From a virus (taxonomy: Duplodnaviria; Caudoviricetes): a stretch of DNA of 64,000 bases. The notes beneath the pieces are model-generated. The model did no database searches. It saw nothing but the letters and a program-made list of their open reading frames with translations, and had not been told where the DNA came from. Below, in pieces: positions 18,836 through 55,635 of this stretch (its first letter is position 1; each line of letters opens with the position of its first letter). A program made the translations under genes and the position numbers. Where the stretch lies: positions 1 to 64,000 of IMG/VR virus record IMGVR_UViG_3300033463_000076; one strand, given 5' to 3'.

Positions 18836-18868
18836 CAAAAATAGTTAATTCTATTTGAAAAACAAATA
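18836..18868 (-). promoter_or_regulatory. Bacteroidetes-type promoter with palindromic -33 region
   Basis: Minus strand TTTG-N19-TATTTTTG; overlaps TATTTG-AAAAA-CAAATA (18852-18868). Confidence 0.7.
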
Positions 18869-27132: not shown

Positions 27133-28446
27133 CTAATCACCGTTTACGACGTATTCGGCTACAGCCTCAATCAGTGCCTCCTCGTCCTCGTCAGAGAGTT
27201 CGTTGGCCTTCTTGATGACGGTATCGTCCTTCGTCTTAGCGTTATACTTGCTGCCAGCAATCTTATTCAGAGCACGTACGAAGCCCTCCTTGGTGTAGGT
27301 GACCTCCTTGTAGGTAATCTGAACGTCCTCAACGTCTGCAGCCTCCTTGACCTCGTCAACCTCAGCGGCCTCGTCGATGTCGAGGGTGTAAATCTGGTCA
27401 ACGTCCTCCAGGATAGGAGCAACGAAGGCCTGACCACTTGTAACCTCGCGCAGCGGGTCAACCTTAGAGTAGTTCGAGATCAGCTTGAAGACGTCGACGA
27501 GCTTGTAGTTAACCCACTTGACAGGGTTAGACTGCTCAGCCAGACGGCCGTAAACCAGCGTACCGACAACCTCGTTACAGATGAATACGAGGACGTTGCT
27601 TGCCCATGGCTTAACAGACTTCTTCTTGCCGTTCTTCTCACGGATGATGGTACGGTCGATGACACGGAAGGTCACGCCATACTCGTCCTCGAAGGCAGCG
27701 TTGAAGTTCTTGCTGTTAGGCACACCCAGACTGGTGTCGTCAGTGAACGAACGGCCCTCGAAAGAGGCAACCAGCTCACGTGCTCCACGGGTCTGACGCA
27801 GACGGTCGTATGCGGTCTTGGCGATACAAATCTGAATGATGCTGTTCTGGTCACGGTCACGTGCGGTGTCGAGTACACGCTTGATGTCCTCGATGGTCAG
27901 CTCACCCTTGGTGGTGACACCAAACTTATTCTTCTTCAGATAGTTGAAGTTCAGACGCATCAGAGACTTCTCAGGTGCATCGGGGTCTTCATCCTTAATG
28001 GCCACATAGCCGTGAGAGAGGGCGAACAGGAACGCATACTCATTCTGCTCGTCGATACCGACTGCACAGGCGACAGCATCGTCAGCAAGACGCTTGGCGA
28101 TCTTCTGAGCGTTACCGCCCTGGGCAATCATCACGTTCAGGTTGTTGATGTCGGACTCCTTGAGGTACTTCTTCATACCAACCTTCGGGAGCTTACCATT
28201 TGCCGAAGCAATGGTGTCACGGCTCTTCAAGGGGAGCTCAGAGTCAACAGCCACATAGTCGGCAGCAACGAACGTAGTGTTTACGGACGTGCTTTCCCAC
28301 TTGTTATCGGGGGCAAACTCAGTGCCCAGCATTTCCTTATGGAGATAGGTCAGAGGGCGAGTGCGCTTCTCGTTGACCTTCTCGATGTAGCGCTGGAGTT
28401 TCGGGAAAAACTTCGCAACGTACTTGTAGAACAAACTTTTCTGCAT
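27133..28446 (-). CDS. major capsid protein
   Basis: 437 aa; AADYVAVDSELPLKSRD...GKLPKVG motif; follows scaffold and decoration genes. Confidence 0.8.
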   Translation of the reverse strand: MQKSLFYKYVAKFFPKLQRYIEKVNEKRTRPLTYLHKEMLGTEFAPDNKWESTSVNTTFVAADYVAVDSELPLKSRDTIASANGKLPKVGMKKYLKESDINNLNVMIAQGGNAQKIAKRLADDAVACAVGIDEQNEYAFLFALSHGYVAIKDEDPDAPEKSLMRLNFNYLKKNKFGVTTKGELTIEDIKRVLDTARDRDQNSIIQICIAKTAYDRLRQTRGARELVASFEGRSFTDDTSLGVPNSKNFNAAFEDEYGVTFRVIDRTIIREKNGKKKSVKPWASNVLVFICNEVVGTLVYGRLAEQSNPVKWVNYKLVDVFKLISNYSKVDPLREVTSGQAFVAPILEDVDQIYTLDIDEAAEVDEVKEAADVEDVQITYKEVTYTKEGFVRALNKIAGSKYNAKTKDDTVIKKANELSDEDEEALIEAVAEYVVNGD

Positions 28447-28895: not shown

Positions 28896-29702
28896 CTACA
28901 TATCTACGAGCTCGTCGATCTCATCGTCGGTGTACGGCTCCTCTTCCTGACTGTCGTCGTCTTCCGACTTGGAACCCTTAGTGCTGGGGGGAGCACCTAA
29001 CTTACCCAGACCACTCTTCTTGCGTTCCTTATTCATTTCCTCGAGGTCGTCACGAACTTCGTCCAGGAACTCCTCGAAATCGTCCTCGTCATCGAACTCC
29101 TGCTTTTCGAAGCGGCGGAGTACCGACTTGCCGAACGTTCCCGTGTTTTCCAGGACCTTCTCAAGACGCTTGCGGCGGCGGTCAACGGTCTTGTCACCCT
29201 TGAGCTTGGCGATTTCGTCGTTCTGACTCTTCACCAGCTTTGTCAGATTCTTGATCTGTCTGGAGAGATAGTCGTTGTGACCGTCGTCATCGTCATCCTC
29301 GTCGTCATCTTCGTCATCGTCCTTAGACTTCTTGGACTTACCGCCCTTCTTGGACTTCTTCGACTTCTTTGGTTTCTTGCCTTTCGGCTCGTCATCATCG
29401 TCATCGTCGTCGTCATCATCCTCGTCATCATCGTCCTCGTCATCATCATCGTCATCCCCACGGGCTGCTTCCAACTTGCGACGGACAATGCGGCTCGAAT
29501 GTTTCTGAGCGGCTTCGATGTAAGGGATTGCGTCATCGATAGCATTTTCGATGGCATTCGCTACATCCTCGTCAGAGGCGTCTTCCTCGATGTCGAGTTT
29601 TTTGGCAATGGTAGCGGCAAAACTCTCAACATCCTTGCGCTCGAATCCGTACCTCTTCACCTTCGGTTTCAGCGCTTTGATTACTTGCTGTAAATACTTC
29701 AT
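28896..29702 (-). CDS. capsid scaffolding protein with poly-Asp/Lys-rich insert
   Basis: Likely start MKYLQQVIKAL at 29702; helical and acidic; first gene after a late-type promoter. Confidence 0.6.
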   Translation of the reverse strand: MKYLQQVIKALKPKVKRYGFERKDVESFAATIAKKLDIEEDASDEDVANAIENAIDDAIPYIEAAQKHSSRIVRRKLEAARGDDDDDDEDDDDEDDDDDDDDDDEPKGKKPKKSKKSKKGGKSKKSKDDDEDDDEDDDDDGHNDYLSRQIKNLTKLVKSQNDEIAKLKGDKTVDRRRKRLEKVLENTGTFGKSVLRRFEKQEFDDEDDFEEFLDEVRDDLEEMNKERKKSGLGKLGAPPSTKGSKSEDDDSQEEEPYTDDEIDELVDM

Positions 29703-29733
29703 TACTCTTTGCTTTAGTTTAATGATTATTACT

Positions 29734-29842
29734 AAAAAAGGTCCACGCAGAGCCGAAACGCTGCGCAGACCGGACACTCTATAAGAGCAATGAGAGTCTT
29801 TTCGTCCTTACTGGGTGGCGTACAGCTTCATACGCTTTCTGA
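29734..29842 (-). ncRNA. candidate small RNA or late leader (sRNA-B)
   Basis: Promoter at 29846-29878; hairpin ACTCT-CATTGCTCTTAT-AGAGT; terminator GGTCTGCGCAG..CTGCGTGGACC-TTTTTT. Confidence 0.55.
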
Positions 29843-29845
29843 CCG

Positions 29846-29878
29846 CAAAAATAGTTAAATCTATTTGAAAAACAAATA
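29846..29878 (-). promoter_or_regulatory. promoter with palindromic -33 region
   Basis: TTTG-N19-TATTTTTG; TATTTG-AAAAA-CAAATA at 29862-29878. Confidence 0.7.
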
Positions 29879-29916
29879 AACTACGCATTTTTAACAATCT
29901 TTATTATATAACAATA

Positions 29917-29944
29917 GGAGTAGGCGAGAAATCCCACCTACTCC
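29917..29944 (-). terminator. hairpin ending the accessory operon
   Basis: Perfect 8-bp inverted repeat GGAGTAGG/CCTACTCC; weak U-tract. Confidence 0.4.
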
Positions 29945-29974
29945 CTTGAAACAAGTGTTAGCAATGAAACGGCC

Positions 29975-30541
29975 TCAGAAATTGAAGTCGTAGAACTTAT
30001 ACGGTTTCATCTGGGGGACATACCTCAGACCATAGGCATCATACCAACGACCGTCGGCGTGCAAGCGGATGGCCACCACCTCGCCCTCTGGATCGGGTTC
30101 TATCTTCCAGTCCTGAACCGAGTTATCGAAATGGCCGAGGAAACCGCCCATGACGAACGAAGTAGACCGTCTCTGCTTGCTCTCCTCCGTTTCCTCTGCC
30201 TTCATACGTCTTACCATCCACAGCTTCTCCGTGCGCTCCTCGATGACCTCATAGGGATTGGCGTCGGAGTGCAGGCACTGGGCCATGTACTTCTTCTCCA
30301 GTGACATGAAGGTGGCGTGCTGCAGCTCCTCCTTCAGCGACTTTATCTTCTCCTGGTACGGCTTCATCTTCGGCCAGTAGGCTTCCCATGCAGTATGCCT
30401 TGCCTCCTCAGTACCGCCACTGGCTACAATATGTGACACACGCTCCATATTGACCTCATTCAGTTTCAACTCGTTGTCTGCAATGAGCTGGTTCAGCTCC
30501 ATTGCGTAGGAAATCCATTCTTCTCTTTTCATATCAAACAA
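29975..30541 (-). CDS. hypothetical phage protein
   Basis: 188 aa; C-terminal PYKFYDFNF. Confidence 0.6.
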   Translation of the reverse strand: MFDMKREEWISYAMELNQLIADNELKLNEVNMERVSHIVASGGTEEARHTAWEAYWPKMKPYQEKIKSLKEELQHATFMSLEKKYMAQCLHSDANPYEVIEERTEKLWMVRRMKAEETEESKQRRSTSFVMGGFLGHFDNSVQDWKIEPDPEGEVVAIRLHADGRWYDAYGLRYVPQMKPYKFYDFNF

Positions 30542-30771
30542 ATATAACCGTTATATCCACTCTTCTCCATAGCCCTGCCTATCTTCACCAGTCTGTTAAA
30601 GAACAGCGTGGCCGTCACGAAATCCGCCATGGCCTTGTTCCACTGGCGCTTGCCCTTCGGCGGGTCATCGAACGTATAGATGACATCCTTTCCGTTGCTG
30701 AGGTGCCAAGCTATAGCGTTGTCGTTATGGCTCAGGTCACCCAGTGCTGCCGTCTCTTCTATCCTAATCAT
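30529..30771 (-). CDS. hypothetical protein
   Basis: 80 aa, overlapping-coupled ORF. Confidence 0.5.
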   Translation of the reverse strand: MIRIEETAALGDLSHNDNAIAWHLSNGKDVIYTFDDPPKGKRQWNKAMADFVTATLFFNRLVKIGRAMEKSGYNGYICLI

Positions 30772-30992: not shown

Positions 30993-31487
30993 CTACCTAC
31001 CGAAATCAGTGATATCTACAACCTCCACACCAAAGCCTCTTTCCCTCAGATAGTCGGCGTACTTCTGGAAACGCTCACTATCGATGTAGACGAAATCGTA
31101 ATTGTCAGGCTCCGAACAGCAGAGCCTCAGACCAAGCATCCCTGAAACCAATCGTGCATCAGTGAACCAAGCCGTGTACTGGTGCTGCTCCTTGAAGAAC
31201 AGCAGCTTGCGTTCGTAACCGACGGACTTCGTGATATACGTCTCGAGCATGAACTTCTTCAGTGCCATGCTCCCAAGTTCACCAAGGGCTACGTGCAGGA
31301 ACATCGTACCGATATCATCGGGCGTTGCCTCGTCATTGTCACTGCGAACTATCAGCGTGCAGTTGCCGGCATAGTTCGAATACTTGACCTGCAGTCCCAG
31401 ATACGACTTGCCGTCCATGACCTTCTGCATCGTCTTGCAGGTCTGCTCCGTGAAGAAACCCAGTTCCTCAAATATCTTCTCTACCAT
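30993..31487 (-). CDS. protein with a C-terminal MutS domain I-like region
   Basis: KLLFFK...YTAWFTDARLVSGMLGL...YADYLRERGFGVEVVD resembles MutS_I. Confidence 0.45.
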   Translation of the reverse strand: MVEKIFEELGFFTEQTCKTMQKVMDGKSYLGLQVKYSNYAGNCTLIVRSDNDEATPDDIGTMFLHVALGELGSMALKKFMLETYITKSVGYERKLLFFKEQHQYTAWFTDARLVSGMLGLRLCCSEPDNYDFVYIDSERFQKYADYLRERGFGVEVVDITDFGR

Positions 31488-31815: not shown

Positions 31816-32124
31816 TTAACACTTTGTTACTGAACCTGAAACGATGTACGTCTTAACAGCGAACTTGGCTGCTATCTCATAGGGGACACGCTCACAGTGA
31901 TGGTCCATTTCCCACTTCTGACAGAACTGCTCACCCTCCTGGGATATGCAGAGGACTATCTTGCCCTCAGCTGAGCGGTTGACCATTTCCTGCAAGGCGT
32001 TGATGCAATCGAGGCAGAGATAAGCACTGCTGCGCCTCATTGACTTCGGATCAAACGAATAGACGTTGAACTTTCCGTCTGTCTGCTTGTAGTATTCTAC
32101 TACTTTCTTCTGTGTTACTTTCAT
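31816..32124 (-). CDS. hypothetical protein
   Basis: 102 aa; start preceded by the TAAGAGCA motif. Confidence 0.55.
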   Translation of the reverse strand: MKVTQKKVVEYYKQTDGKFNVYSFDPKSMRRSSAYLCLDCINALQEMVNRSAEGKIVLCISQEGEQFCQKWEMDHHCERVPYEIAAKFAVKTYIVSGSVTKC

Positions 32125-32270
32125 TGCTCTTACTTGTTTAAAACGATGTTTCTTAATGTTCCTTTATTATGGTGTAAAGGTAGTGATTTTTTTCCAATTA
32201 TGCAAGCAAAACACCCATTATTTTGTTAACCAGACTTAACCAGCGGAAAGTTTAACTTTACCTAACTTTT
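32122..32270 (-). promoter_or_regulatory. repeated accessory-gene promoter/leader unit, copy 1
   Basis: Phased GTTA(A/G) boxes; TTGC-N19-TACCTTTAC; CATTAAGAAAC; TAAGAGCA-ATG. Confidence 0.7.
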
Positions 32271-32276
32271 GCAACG

Positions 32277-32371
32277 AAAAACGCGCCCTAACCTCACGGT
32301 CCGGACGCGCAAGAGAGCTTGGTCAGTCGCTAAGAGCAATCCAAACGACTGCCTTCTCTCATTAAGAAACG
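32277..32371 (-). ncRNA. candidate antisense small RNA (sRNA-A)
   Basis: Promoter TTTG-N20-TATCTTTG (32375-32406); 5' tail GTTTCTTAATG; hairpin loop ATTGCTCTTA; terminator CGCGTCC..GGGCGCG-TTTTT with GTGA tetraloop. Confidence 0.6.
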
Positions 32372-32374
32372 CTG

Positions 32375-32406
32375 CAAAGATAGAACATTTTTTCTGTCCT
32401 ACCAAA
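32375..32406 (-). promoter_or_regulatory. consensus Bacteroidetes promoter downstream of terL
   Basis: TTTG (32403-32406), N20, TATCTTTG (32375-32382). Confidence 0.7.
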
Positions 32407-36601: not shown

Positions 36602-36617
36602 AACTCGGGATTTTAAG

Positions 36618-36689
36618 ACCGCCGTGAAGGATTCAAACCCCCAACTCCAGCTACGAGTGCTGGGCTTTATTCAGTTAAGCTAACGGCGG
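36618..36689 (-). tRNA. degenerate tRNA, probably Thr(CGT)-derived
   Basis: CCGCCGT/ACGGCGG acceptor; anticodon arm CAGCA-CTCGTA-GCTG looks like CAGCA-CTCGTAA-TGCTG lacking 2 nt; T-loop TTTGAAT. Confidence 0.55.
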
Positions 36690-36724
36690 AAATTAAACTA
36701 CAGCATTTCTTCTTAAAAGCGATG

Positions 36725-36756
36725 CAAATATACAAACATTATTTGAAAAACAAATA
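36725..36756 (-). promoter_or_regulatory. promoter with palindromic -33 region
   Basis: TTTG-N18-TATATTTG; palindrome 36740-36756 followed by GAATTAAC. Confidence 0.65.
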
Positions 36757-38153: not shown

Positions 38154-38185
38154 TAAAGGTAGTAAATTTATTTGAAATACAAATA
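38154..38185 (-). promoter_or_regulatory. hybrid promoter: palindromic -33 plus TACCTTTA -7
   Basis: TATTTG-AAATA-CAAATA (38169-38185); TACCTTTAC 18 nt downstream of the TTTG. Confidence 0.6.
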
Positions 38186-44895: not shown

Positions 44896-45552
44896 TTACA
44901 GGTTGTCTTTGTAGTCCGAAACATTCTCCGCGCAGCTGATCTGAGTGGCACCGCGACGGTTAACGAAATACTTCTCCAGCGTTCTCTTGATGCGGATGAC
45001 CTGAATCTGGCAGTATTCCATGCCGACAGGGAAACCATCTTCCGAGTTGTCGAAGTAACCGAGGGTACGGAACGACTTCAGGCCTACAGACTTGGCAGCT
45101 GCGCTTCCTTCGTCGTACTTGTCAAAGCCAGTACCGTCAGACTTGACGAACATTCGAGTGAAGCGGACGGTATCGGTGTCGCTTGACTGCTTGAAGTACT
45201 CCTGAACGATACAGAACTGGTTCAGCAGTGGGTCGTTACTGCGAAGAAGCTCGTCGATCCAGTAAGGCGAGAACGTTCCAGTGGTAGCCACGTCGAACTT
45301 GTAAGGCTCCTGTTTCTCCTCCTTAGCCTCTGCCGGCTGCTCGGGCTCTACAGGCTCCAGGTCTTCCTCTTTCTCCACTCGGACATTACCCTGATACTGC
45401 TTCTTCAGGGAAGCCTTCAATGCTGATACACTGCGCTTACCTTTCAACTCCTCCAGCTGCTTGAAAAGCTCCTCGGACTTGATGGTTGCTGACTCGAAGT
45501 TCTCACTCTCGAAAATGCTCTTAATCTGAGCCTTAATCTCTTTTTCTTTCAT
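44896..45552 (-). CDS. hypothetical protein
   Basis: 218 aa; TAAGAGCA-ATG start. Confidence 0.55.
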   Translation of the reverse strand: MKEKEIKAQIKSIFESENFESATIKSEELFKQLEELKGKRSVSALKASLKKQYQGNVRVEKEEDLEPVEPEQPAEAKEEKQEPYKFDVATTGTFSPYWIDELLRSNDPLLNQFCIVQEYFKQSSDTDTVRFTRMFVKSDGTGFDKYDEGSAAAKSVGLKSFRTLGYFDNSEDGFPVGMEYCQIQVIRIKRTLEKYFVNRRGATQISCAENVSDYKDNL

Positions 45553-45700
45553 TGCTCTTAATTTTTTAAAAACGTTTCTTAATATGTTTATTGTTTACAC
45601 TTGTAAAGGTAGTGAATTTTCTCGAATTGTGCAAGGGTTACGCTCTTTATTTTGTTAACCGGACTTAACTGGCGAAGAGTTTAACCTTTCCTAACTTTTG
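45550..45700 (-). promoter_or_regulatory. repeated promoter/leader unit, copy 2
   Basis: GTTA boxes; TTGC-N19-TACCTTTAC; ATTAAGAAAC; TAAGAGCA-ATG. Confidence 0.7.
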
Positions 45701-45893: not shown

Positions 45894-46085
45894 TTAATAC
45901 ATTTTCTGGACGAACAGCTTTGTATTCCAGTCATTGACATACGTGAAATACTTCTCACGGGGCTCACAGACCAGGTTGACTTTCTTCTTCTTGTCCTCAA
46001 ACCACTGATCTGCTTCTTCCTGAGTCTTGAACCTCTTGGTCTCTCTCCTCAGTGACTTCTCGTTTAAAATGATGATTCTGACCAT
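45894..46085 (-). CDS. hypothetical protein
   Basis: 63 aa; TAAGAGCA-ATG start. Confidence 0.5.
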   Translation of the reverse strand: MVRIIILNEKSLRRETKRFKTQEEADQWFEDKKKKVNLVCEPREKYFTYVNDWNTKLFVQKMY

Positions 46086-46235
46086 TGCTCTTACTTCTTT
46101 TAGTTGTTTCTTAATGTTTTATTTTTATGATGTAAAGGTAGTGAAAAAGCGCGATATATGCAAGGTTTTCGGCGAAAAAATACTTAAAAAGTGTTCAGCG
46201 ACCGATTATTTAACCTTACCTAACTTTTGCAGCGT
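46083..46235 (-). promoter_or_regulatory. repeated promoter/leader unit, copy 3
   Basis: TTGC-N19-TACCTTTAC; CATTAAGAAAC; TAAGAGCA-ATG. Confidence 0.7.
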
Positions 46236-50303: not shown

Positions 50304-50417
50304 TCAAAATAGCCTCGGAGTAACATTAAGAAACTTGCTCGTAAAAAAGCAATGAAACGCCTCACGGCGGTATTTCCTAAACTAACTATTATTCCACCTA
50401 ACTCGCATAGCGGCGAC

Positions 50418-52545: not shown

Positions 52546-52980
52546 CTACACGGCCGGCAGGAAACCGCGTCCCTGCCGAGTCGTATCTGTCGTACGTCCT
52601 AAATACTTCTTGACCTCCCAAATGACGTCGCTGACGGTCTGGAAGTACACCTCAGAGCGTTCAATCTTAATACCGACGCTTTCGATCAACTTCTGCTGTG
52701 TCTTGTTGAAGAAATCAGCAGCCAGCTTACAGCTCTCCGTGTAGTTCATGCCACCGAAGCGGTAAACGATCTCCCAGAGCTTATCACGAACTTTCAGGTC
52801 TGCCTCAACCGCCTTGGCTATCTCCCTGGCTTTGTTGACACGGGCCTGATTCATCTTAACCCACAACTTACAGAACTCGTCTTTGTCGAGGTCTGACTGG
52901 TTGTAAACTTCGTTGATGTGCCAGTACTCGGCTTCTGAAACCTTCATCTGGACTCTTGCTTCAAATTCTGACTGTAACAT
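52546..52980 (-). CDS. hypothetical phage protein
   Basis: MLQSEFEARV...INEVY...DKDEFCKLW; TAAGAGCA-ATG start. Confidence 0.6.
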   Translation of the reverse strand: MLQSEFEARVQMKVSEAEYWHINEVYNQSDLDKDEFCKLWVKMNQARVNKAREIAKAVEADLKVRDKLWEIVYRFGGMNYTESCKLAADFFNKTQQKLIESVGIKIERSEVYFQTVSDVIWEVKKYLGRTTDTTRQGRGFLPAV

Positions 52981-53110
52981 TGCTCTTAATTCTTTAAAAA
53001 ACCGTTTCTTAATGTTTTATTTTGATAGTGTAAAGGTAGTGAAAAACGGCGATATACGCAAGTATTTCAGTCTTTATTTTCTTAAAAAGTGTTCAACCAA
53101 AAACTAAATA
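52978..53110 (-). promoter_or_regulatory. repeated promoter/leader unit, copy 4
   Basis: TTGC-N19-TACCTTTAC; CATTAAGAAAC; TAAGAGCA-ATG. Confidence 0.7.
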
Positions 53111-54606: not shown

Positions 54607-54783
54607 CTACAATCTACCGAAGTGGGCATCTGCTCCACGCTTCGCTGATAAACAACTCGGATAGCCAGTAGCGTGCGTTACCATACTTCCATCATCCTGC
54701 ACGGTTCCAACGTGCCAGTCCGGACGTGCAAACCTCTTTCCTGCGTTTGCGTTCCAAATCGAATAACCTTTGTACTTAATCAT
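54607..54783 (-). CDS. hypothetical protein (58 aa)
   Basis: MIKYKGYSIWNANAGKRFARPDWH...; TAAGAGCA-ATG start. Confidence 0.55.
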   Translation of the reverse strand: MIKYKGYSIWNANAGKRFARPDWHVGTVQDDGSMVTHATGYPSCLSAKRGADAHFGRL

Positions 54784-54788
54784 TGCTC

Positions 54789-55253
54789 TTATTTCTTTAG
54801 CGTTTCCAAAATAACCATATTCTCCTTACACTTGCTGACGATGAAGCGATACGACCAACCACCTTCCGAGAACTCCTCACGGAACTTCAGTCCCAGCTCT
54901 TTCAGCTTAGAACGGACACCCTGCTTCTTCTCGTCCAACTTCCAAAGAGTATCGACACTCACACCAAATGACGTAGCCTGAATGCCAAACAGCGGCTTCA
55001 GGTACTGGTAGAGGTCGATGTACGTATTCTTAACCTCAGCGAACAGGCGCTGTGATATCCACTCCCACGTTACTTCTTTCTCCTTCGGGGTCTTCATCCA
55101 CTTCGAATAGTACTGACCGTCGCCACCCTCGAAGCCTGAAACCAAAATCTTAACGGCTTTCTGCGGTGTCGTCTCGTAGCACAGATCATCCACGAAGTCT
55201 ATCACGAAACCTTCTGACTTGACTCTCTCGATTGTCTCTTTGCTGATATTCAT
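54789..55253 (-). CDS. hypothetical protein
   Basis: 154 aa, coupled ORF. Confidence 0.5.
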   Translation of the reverse strand: MNISKETIERVKSEGFVIDFVDDLCYETTPQKAVKILVSGFEGGDGQYYSKWMKTPKEKEVTWEWISQRLFAEVKNTYIDLYQYLKPLFGIQATSFGVSVDTLWKLDEKKQGVRSKLKELGLKFREEFSEGGWSYRFIVSKCKENMVILETLKK

Positions 55254-55257
55254 ATCT

Positions 55258-55494
55258 CTAACAGATTTCGAGGTTCTTCATTTCGTTCTCGTCGAAGGTG
55301 TAGCCCATCTTAGCCATTTCCTTCACTGCAGCTTTCTTGGCACCACTGGCTGTACTATAGATGCGACCCTTACCGATAGAAAACCAGTACTCGCCGTCCT
55401 GGATAGCAGTCACCATTATCTCGTCTTTCTGTCCTCCGTTAAGCGAGAACTTTACCGACTTTCTTTCCGAATTGTTACACTTGATTGTTACCAT
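55258..55494 (-). CDS. hypothetical protein
   Basis: Real start MVTIKC at 55494, after TAAGAGCA. Confidence 0.55.
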   Translation of the reverse strand: MVTIKCNNSERKSVKFSLNGGQKDEIMVTAIQDGEYWFSIGKGRIYSTASGAKKAAVKEMAKMGYTFDENEMKNLEIC

Positions 55495-55635
55495 TGCTCT
55501 TACTTCTTTTTGATGTTTCTTAATGTTTTTATTTATGGTGTAAAGGTAGTAAAAAAACACGATATTTGCAATAGATACACTCTTTATTTTGTTAACGAAA
55601 CTTTAGCAGCGGAAAGATTAACCTTTCATAACTTT
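55492..55635 (-). promoter_or_regulatory. repeated promoter/leader unit, copy 5
   Basis: GTTA boxes; TTGC-N19-TACCTTTAC; CATTAAGAAAC; TAAGAGCA-ATG. Confidence 0.7.

Follow-up and report, generated by a model that had tools for sequence, protein, structure and literature searches.

A conserved three-domain leader RNA at the head operon of Bacteroidales phages that may act as an antisense RNA on identical start-codon tags

Introduction

In a temperate Bacteroidales phage from the gut, a short non-coding stretch separates a promoter from the head genes and carries, in reverse, a sequence that spans the start codons of genes located elsewhere in the same genome. This arrangement raises the question whether the stretch is a transcriptional leader, the source of an antisense RNA directed at these start codons, or both. 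The window, i.e., the whole stretch of DNA analysed here, covers the first 64 kb of a virus record of 80,112 nt and contains exactly seven copies of TAAGAGCAATG, six of them on the minus strand across ATG codons and one in reverse in the loop of a stem-loop denoted P2. Phages of this kind are numerous in the guts of humans and animals and, to our knowledge, hardly any work has addressed post-transcriptional control in Bacteroidales or in their phages.

Genomic context and anatomy of the leader

All genes around the leader are on the minus strand, and the leader is read on that strand (Table 1). The first gene behind it encodes a protein of phrog_5824 that is presumably a scaffold, judging from position and composition only. 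By protein comparison, uncultured faecal phages and phages of Cellulophaga or Porphyromonas come nearest (23-43%); a blastn search of the head region against cultured-phage records yields no match. No informative Pfam or PHROG match points to a regulator among the neighbouring genes. The 164-aa protein encoded at 30993-31487 shows a weak match to MutS domain I (E = 1e-5).

Table 1. Features of the leader, the head genes, the tagged starts and the stand-alone unit
Feature	Position	Strand	Description
188-aa gene	end at 29975		upstream of the leader; followed by a hairpin at 29945-29916
Palindrome ATTTG-N5-CAAAT	29863..29877	-	overlaps the -33 element
Promoter, Bacteroides-type	29846..29876	-	-33 TTTG 29876-29873; 19-nt spacer; -7 TATTTTTG 29853-29846
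P1	29818..29835	-	6-bp hairpin GCGUAU/GUACGC, loop GAAGCU; predicted 5' end of the RNA
P2	29772..29807	-	GGAC 29807-29804, ACUCU 29797-29793, AGAGU 29780-29776, GUCC 29775-29772
P2 loop CAUUGCUCUUAU	29792-29781	-	displays the seed
Seed CAUUGCUCUUA	29782..29792	-	exact complement of the start tag UAAGAGCAAUG
Intrinsic terminator	29734..29771	-	GGUCUGCGCAG / CUGCGUGGACC 29771-29740, then U6 29739-29734
Own start region AAAGAGUAAUG	29700..29710	-	tag-like; 10 bp with the seed including one G.U pair
Scaffold-like gene	28896..29702	-	268 aa, acidic, phrog_5824; first behind the leader; ATG 29702-29700
132-aa gene, then major head protein	27133-28446 (head protein)		head protein, phrog_29; both downstream of the scaffold-like gene
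Tag	32122..32132	-	across the ATG of a 102-aa gene
Other tags in the window	45550-45560, 46083-46093, 52978-52988, 54781-54791, 55492-55502	-	identical to 32122..32132
Tagged ATGs in the window	32124, 45552, 46085, 52980, 54783, 55494	-	exact TAAGAGCAATG
Repeat unit of ~90 nt	32122, 45550, 46083, 52978, 55492 (window); 65694 (genome)		cTTGCa-N17-CACTACCTTTACA...AACATTAAGAAAC-N10-TAAGAGCAATG
Stand-alone unit ('sRNA-A')	32283..32406	-	promoter TTTG..TATCTTTG, GUUUCUUAAUG, stem CAGUCG/CGACUG with loop GAUUGCUCUUA, terminator

The stretch behind the promoter is about 105 nt long and ends 31 nt before the ATG of the scaffold-like gene. The first-pass annotation had described a promoter, some 105 nt with a GGAC/ACTCT stem-loop and an 11-bp U-tailed terminator before the scaffold ATG, every detail of which is correct; the loop had also been read as the exact 11-nt complement of a tag at six starts, and the reverse copy is indeed present at the expected place (29782-29792). 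The terminator stem of 11 bp includes two G.U pairs, encloses a loop of 10 nt and has a mean pair probability of 0.97. The proposal that this terminator obliges the head genes to rely on antitermination or read-through likewise stands: because the terminator is conserved and there is no room for a promoter behind it, transcription of the head genes must pass it.

In almost every lineage, single-sequence folds resolve the same three domains, each forming independently, and the motif lies in the apical portion of P2. When the seed is left free or blocked in folds from five lineages, the terminator pair probability stays at 0.92-0.98, i.e., no seed-occupancy switch is seen, and the mutually exclusive terminator and antiterminator folds of a riboswitch or attenuator are not found, the domains folding independently. 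A scan of positions 29000-30600 against Rfam detects no relevant family, only two chance-level matches elsewhere in that region (E > 0.4). A possible pseudoknot that would join UCGN, behind the 5' arm of P2, to NCGA, ahead of the terminator, looked convincing by eye. Linkers permuted among lineages give 33.6 4-bp matches versus 35 of 45 observed, and because permuted linkers match as often, the pairing shows no covariation beyond conservation.

The promoter and its palindrome

The promoter matches the Bacteroides consensus TAnnTTTG / TTTG, as quoted in PMC7366714. Full matches to TTTG-N17-21-TANNTTTG number four in the window, all on the minus strand, with 0.35 expected. A scan for promoters of the sigma-70 type lists neither the leader promoter nor the terminator, as that scanner seeks another promoter type and loops of at most 8 nt.

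The palindrome that overlaps the -33 element is found in exact form (ATTTGAAAAACAAAT on the plus strand) only at 18853-18867, 29863-29877, 36741-36755 and 38170-38184, that is, at four promoter-like places that are module starts, each time overlapping a -33 element; at up to one mismatch, there are seven matches against 1.4 expected. The leaders of relatives have the same palindrome upstream, with compensatory variants such as GTTTG..CAAAC. It is probably a regulator site common to a small promoter class and a candidate site for a dimeric regulator of structural-gene promoters. The existence of such a co-regulated class suggests that the leader promoter is probably regulated. This promoter also fits the host housekeeping consensus, so that the late timing ascribed to the leader is only putative, and the short RNA could be constitutive, like StxS of Stx phages. 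The leader behind the 36754 promoter (36602-36725) contains a tRNA-like sequence before a 484-aa gene (phrog_7858).

Conservation and covariation of the leader

The sequence pattern of P1 alone occurs in more than 105 IMG/VR contigs among the matches listed, and the whole leader is kept in relatives found via the capsid protein. A search with the scaffold protein, which is blind to the leader sequence, places the leader upstream of most scaffold homologues, both in viral contigs and in assemblies of Prevotella, Parabacteroides, Bacteroides and other Bacteroidales. RNAalifold recovers P1 and the terminator, with compensatory changes, from a plain MAFFT alignment of 23 leaders. After realignment of 45 distinct leaders with a covariance model, 99% of the cells are paired and 12 of the 20 pairs have changed on both sides, counts that are favoured by the fitting of this alignment to the model structure, a bias from which the RNAalifold/MAFFT result is free. 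None of 500 shuffles reaches the observed pairing, and slid controls are 20-51% paired.

All three domains contribute to this pattern in the 45 leaders. P1 has three of its six pairs changed on both sides and 100% of cells paired, and the terminator four of eight modelled pairs with 99.4% of cells paired. In the closing helix of P2, the changes affect five of six pairs (AGAACU/AGUUCU, AGAACC/GGUUCU and GGAC/GUCC among relatives). The inner stem of P2 varies by lineage, with ACUCU/AGAGU here and ACAUU/AAUGU, AACCUU/AAGGUU or GUAA/UUAC elsewhere, and the motif stays flanked throughout. At the very least, the leader represents a structured RNA that is new, widespread, supported by covariation and absent from Rfam.

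The only strongly conserved unpaired block in the 23-leader alignment is C-A-U-U-G-C-U-C. Among the 45 distinct leaders, 36 retain at least 7 nt of the seed (a 9-mer in 26, an 8-mer in seven and a 7-mer in three); the nine leaders with less than 7 nt in P2 are mostly single-base variants or small deletions. The predicted mean probability that the seed is unpaired ranges from 0.28 to 0.96 over 23 lineages, with some in which it is partly paired (about 0.3). Variants of the P2 loop include CAUUGCUCA, CAGUGCUCU, CAUUCCUCU and CUUUGCUCG. In the group-A leaders, the seed is cleanly deleted in L016 and mutated to CATTCCTCT in L107, and the L198/L199 leaders lack CATT.

Other variants concern the architecture as such. 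In the L012 group, the most abundant leader type, P2 is swapped for a different, longer insert without the motif, and the terminator loop carries CAUUGCU where relatives have CGUUUGCU. A P1 hairpin (GCGUGUGAAGAUGCACG-like) with a terminator and no P2 motif is present at other operon starts, namely in a second copy in G016 and in L112, L024 and L037. The combination of P1 and terminator looks like a general leader cassette.

Start tags and the tagged genes

The 64-kb window contains 11 matches to the tag at up to one mismatch versus 1.1 expected, a number that none of 100 shuffles reaches; by chance, 64 kb should contain a given 11-mer in reverse about 0.015 times (64000/4^11). The complete 80,112-nt genome has 12 copies, 11 of which lie across the ATG of a real ORF, the twelfth being that in the P2 loop. 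Ten of the 11 tagged starts are on the minus strand, and the remaining one is that of the plus-strand integrase. The tagged genes of recognisable family encode the integrase, a Sak4-like annealing protein and a methyltransferase-like protein, and the rest are small unknowns; all are non-structural, in agreement with the earlier description of six of them as accessory.

In five of the six cases in the window, the tag closes, on the 3' side, a repeat of about 90 nt in which a promoter and a leader are combined with a CATTAAGAAAC box. This repeat is an early-type promoter and leader cassette, the -7 box of which ends in A, not G. An inverted, intergenic copy of an early leader is located at 50324-50354 (CATTGCTTTTT-N9-GTTTCTTAATG on the minus strand) and represents either a further antisense element or a leader that belongs to a plus-strand ORF of 28 aa.

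The tag is specific to the phages: in four host genomes, its copies cluster within prophages and do not exceed background in the rest of the chromosome. Genomes that bear the leader have 10-23 copies of AGAGCAATG on the coding strand, compared with 0-2 in controls; four relatives of the scaffold gene without the leader have 0-1 copies, two of these records being short fragments. The background frequency in host chromosomes led to rejection of the idea that the tag is a ribosome-pairing signal and the loop an rRNA mimic, and the 16S rRNA of one Prevotella host contains no match of 6 nt or longer to the anti-tag.

Predicted energetics are compatible with pairing between the seed and the tags. 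Opening the seed in the terminated RNA is predicted to cost 1.4 kcal/mol and opening the 11 targets 0.7-4.0 kcal/mol, and for each of the 11 tags the predicted net interaction energy lies between -11 and -20 kcal/mol; several targets (AUGAG...) are predicted to lengthen the duplex into the P2 stem. Judged from the sequence, the leader has three attributes of a trans-acting leader RNA of the StxS type, namely its own promoter, an intrinsic terminator and a predicted accessible seed that matches the 11 tags at 11 of 11 nt.

Compensatory change between seed and tag is not found for the leader, the tags being invariant across relatives and the loop varied or lost in some; because the tags never vary, there is no loop-target covariation to score. 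The leader seed is shorter than 7 nt in P2 in G003, G004, G009, G031 and G032, yet these genomes retain 10-23 tags as well as the stand-alone unit, and the L016 and L107 genomes have 12 exact 11-nt tags each despite the altered seed. Since the tags persist after seed loss, the leader seed is dispensable in those five genomes, probably owing to redundancy with the stand-alone unit described below; a weaker or accessory role of the leader fits the same observation equally. In two lineages, in which the loop is CAUUGCUAC or CAUUGCUCA, all tags are degenerate (nnAGCAATG or GAGCAATG), which shows a common core of 7-8 nt, not true covariation.

A stand-alone RNA unit with the same seed

A separate unit in this phage, previously labelled 'sRNA-A', displays the seed outside any operon leader (Table 1). 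Seven relatives have homologous stand-alone units with CAUUGCUCUUA, which lie downstream of terL in G001, G002, G003, G004 and G009 and are also present in G016 and G017. Tags and anti-tag RNA units are associated: with this genome included, all eight examined genomes that have at least ten exact tags carry a stand-alone unit. In the relatives (L245-L249, G016 and G017), the unit consists of a promoter, a 5' segment or hairpin, a single-stranded (C/G)AUUGCUCUUA and a terminator. Each non-coding occurrence of the motif runs antisense to the direction that its own promoter and terminator define.

The presence of the seed in the stand-alone units of all eight tag-rich genomes supports antisense pairing between RNAs, and pairing with the tags appears to be the most economical reading of the motif. 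The stand-alone unit of this genome alone has an additional GUUUCUUAAUG arm, the complement of the CATTAAGAAAC box, and among five genomes compared, it is also the only one with this box on its early leaders. The joint occurrence of arm and box can be regarded as covariation at the level of the system, pointing to RNA-RNA pairing.

Alternative explanations

It is unlikely, although with several observations in its favour, that the leader is purely transcriptional. On that account, P1, P2 and the terminator would make up an attenuation or processive-antitermination cassette resembling lambda pR'-tR' or nut/put, the conserved loop would be a contact site for a protein or for RNA polymerase, and the complementarity to the tags would be a by-product, e.g., of descent from an inverted early leader, with no antisense function. 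Compatible with this are the conservation of a covarying terminator between the promoter and a structural operon of about 30 kb, the recurrence of P1 and terminator without the P2 motif at other operon starts in both related and unrelated phages, the survival of leaders after seed loss, and the existence of the inverted early-leader copy at 50324-50354. Furthermore, the loop contains UGCUCUU, which we take to resemble the boxA core of E. coli and lambda. However, the conserved block contains the start-codon complement CAU, for which a boxA would have no use, and the same 11-mer recurs in single-stranded form in the unrelated stand-alone unit. With the seed blocked in silico, the terminator still has a pair probability of 0.97, so that the folds reveal no switch. 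No antiterminator family is found among the 8-10 neighbouring genes. The leader cassette as a whole probably controls transcription, and what this account leaves out is the antisense activity proposed for the loop.

The boxA/nut idea itself was downgraded on inspection of the Prevotella host of a related prophage, the rrn leader of which has a different boxA-like sequence (AAGUUCUUUGAAA, not UGCUCUU, the phage loop being CAUUGCUCU). In this rrn leader (L251, Prevotella sp. KH2C16), AAGUUCUUUGAAA lies about 40 nt after a TTACCTTTG promoter box. The same rrn leader and the 3' arm of the P2 closing helix in many phage leaders have AGUUCU in common, a likeness that is probably coincidental because the P2 arm covaries as a helix.

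It appears quite improbable that the loop functions as an anti-start element in cis, pairing in the read-through mRNA with the start of the scaffold gene itself (AAAGAGUAAUG) and thereby holding down or timing scaffold translation, as P1 c4 RNA does with its own operon. In this phage such pairing is predicted: the minimum free energy fold of the 156-nt read-through RNA makes a long-range helix around the terminator (-43.5 kcal/mol, z = -2.4), the seed/own-start duplex amounts to -14.4 kcal/mol with a net value of -10.5 kcal/mol, and in many relatives the scaffold start carries a tag-like AAGCAAUG. Nevertheless, the complementarity to the own start that a c4-type element should conserve is 10 bp here, but of the 28 distinct loop/start combinations 17 reach no more than 3-5 bp and nine 6-7 bp, and 10-11 bp is confined to this lineage and the L072/L114 lineage. 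The motif is also kept where the own start cannot pair (L025 and L204), and the L204 prophage is still tagged. Pairing in cis in this phage may be a local extra and not a conserved function. In a clade that includes L118, L123, L128, L129 and related leaders, a perfect palindrome, CATTGTACAATG, spans the scaffold start codon and could form a local hairpin that hides the AUG.

A role at the level of DNA or coding, with TAAGAGCAATG as an operator to which a DNA-binding protein attaches in either orientation or with its reverse copy starting a plus-strand 22-aa gene (MRVFSS...), is very improbable: although the motif lies 30-60 bp downstream of the -7 box in the early units, the stand-alone unit and the leader alike, and the plus-strand copy has an ATG in register and a frame of 22 codons, 11 of the 12 copies line up exactly with the ATG of a real ORF, even at genes that lack the repeat promoter, which indicates a signal at the RNA level, and each non-coding copy is antisense to the local direction from promoter to terminator. 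The plus-strand ORF was itself discarded as a gene, its frame shifting between relatives and in-frame stops interrupting it in eight of 37 leaders.

A putative dual function

Taken together, the data suggest, with a probability of about 0.5, that the leader has a dual function, as a transcription checkpoint and as an antisense silencer. It would be a modular three-domain RNA that forms the 5' leader of the head operon, i.e., of the scaffold-like gene followed by the major capsid gene. A host-type promoter with a palindromic regulator site would start transcription at about 29838-29841, and the transcript would either end at the intrinsic terminator as an RNA of about 105 nt or continue by read-through into the head genes. 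P2 would then display a seed of 9-11 nt for pairing across the start codons of mRNAs that carry the tag UAAGAGCAAUG, in this genome those of 11 genes that include the integrase, the Sak4-like annealing protein and the methyltransferase-like protein, and the resulting duplex would keep ribosomes from binding. In this way, firing of the head-operon promoter would be coupled to shut-off of non-structural and lysogeny proteins. From this arrangement, we infer the accumulation of the leader RNA, its pairing in vivo, its repressive effect and its timing.

The leader would be the second, partly redundant anti-tag RNA of the phage, the first being the stand-alone small RNA unit downstream of terL. A leader-derived antisense RNA may thus belong to a possibly new regulon architecture with identical start tags and two anti-tag RNAs. 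The broader scheme, in which an identical tag of 9-11 nt marks 10-23 non-structural genes per genome, among them the integrase gene, and two RNAs with the same seed read these tags, is put forward tentatively, its chances being somewhat short of even. If this regulon exists, the firing of the virion-gene promoter would directly silence lysogeny and early proteins, and the system has been frozen in sequence over more than 100 gut Bacteroidales phages and prophages, the proteins of which have diverged to 30-40% identity. The scheme is directly testable, given the simple code (a 9-11-nt tag across the AUG) and the defined targets (integrase, recombination, methylase), and related elements are present in the cultured lysogens Prevotella vespertina A2879, Prevotella sp. 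KH2C16 and Parabacteroides faecalis AGMB00274. The tag/seed pair could also serve Bacteroides genetics as a portable translational switch.

Comparison with known systems

Among known systems, StxS of the lambdoid Shiga-toxin (Stx) phages comes closest: this PR' leader RNA is made constitutively, ends at tR' and acts as a small RNA in trans (PMC7547250). Antitermination opens the late genes of these phages, and StxS, which depends on Hfq and undergoes RNase E processing, acts on rpoS and stx1 (PMC7547250). The two systems share a late or structural promoter, an immediate intrinsic terminator, a short base-pairing RNA and a late mRNA that arises by read-through. They differ in that read-through in the StxS system needs the Q protein, whereas here no Q-like gene, chaperone or processing is known, and in that StxS targets host rpoS as well as stx1, whereas the predicted targets here are the phage's own tagged genes in a Bacteroidales host; no sequence or Rfam relationship between the two RNAs was found. 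The '6S' leader of lambda pR' has the same layout. The promoter-proximal terminator of lambda-type late leaders (Q/qut, N/nut) is present here, but a match to the host boxA (AAGUUCUUUGAAA in the Prevotella rrn leader versus CAUUGCUCU in the loop) or an antiterminator gene (8-10 neighbouring genes) is not.

Small phage antisense repressors are exemplified by the c4 RNA of P1/P7 and the sar RNA of P22, both of which repress ant through loops that pair with the ribosome-binding region. The c4 RNA is encoded in the leader of the operon under its control, and c4 and sar each control one operon, whereas here a single seed matches 11 dispersed genes. Within the host phylum, which is poor in Shine-Dalgarno sequences, the GibS small RNA of Bacteroides thetaiotaomicron pairs with translation initiation regions (PMC7366714). 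GibS and other small RNAs from intergenic regions or 5' UTRs resemble the leader in promoter type, intrinsic terminator and single-stranded seed; in contrast, GibS is chromosomal, has metabolic targets and shows no sequence similarity to the leader.

With respect to regulatory logic, the comparison extends to the T4 RegA protein, a translational repressor that competes with ribosomes at about 30 early start regions (PMC3014915). In both cases, one late-acting factor would occlude the starts of many early mRNAs; RegA is a protein that recognises loose A+U-rich sites, whereas the factor proposed here is an RNA that reads an exact tag of 9-11 nt. The leader is not a sequence relative of StxS, RegA, GibS or any Rfam family. 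If the proposed function is correct, the leader is an RNA-based counterpart of T4 RegA and, in a distant phylum, a second case in which the leader of a late operon also serves as a regulatory RNA.
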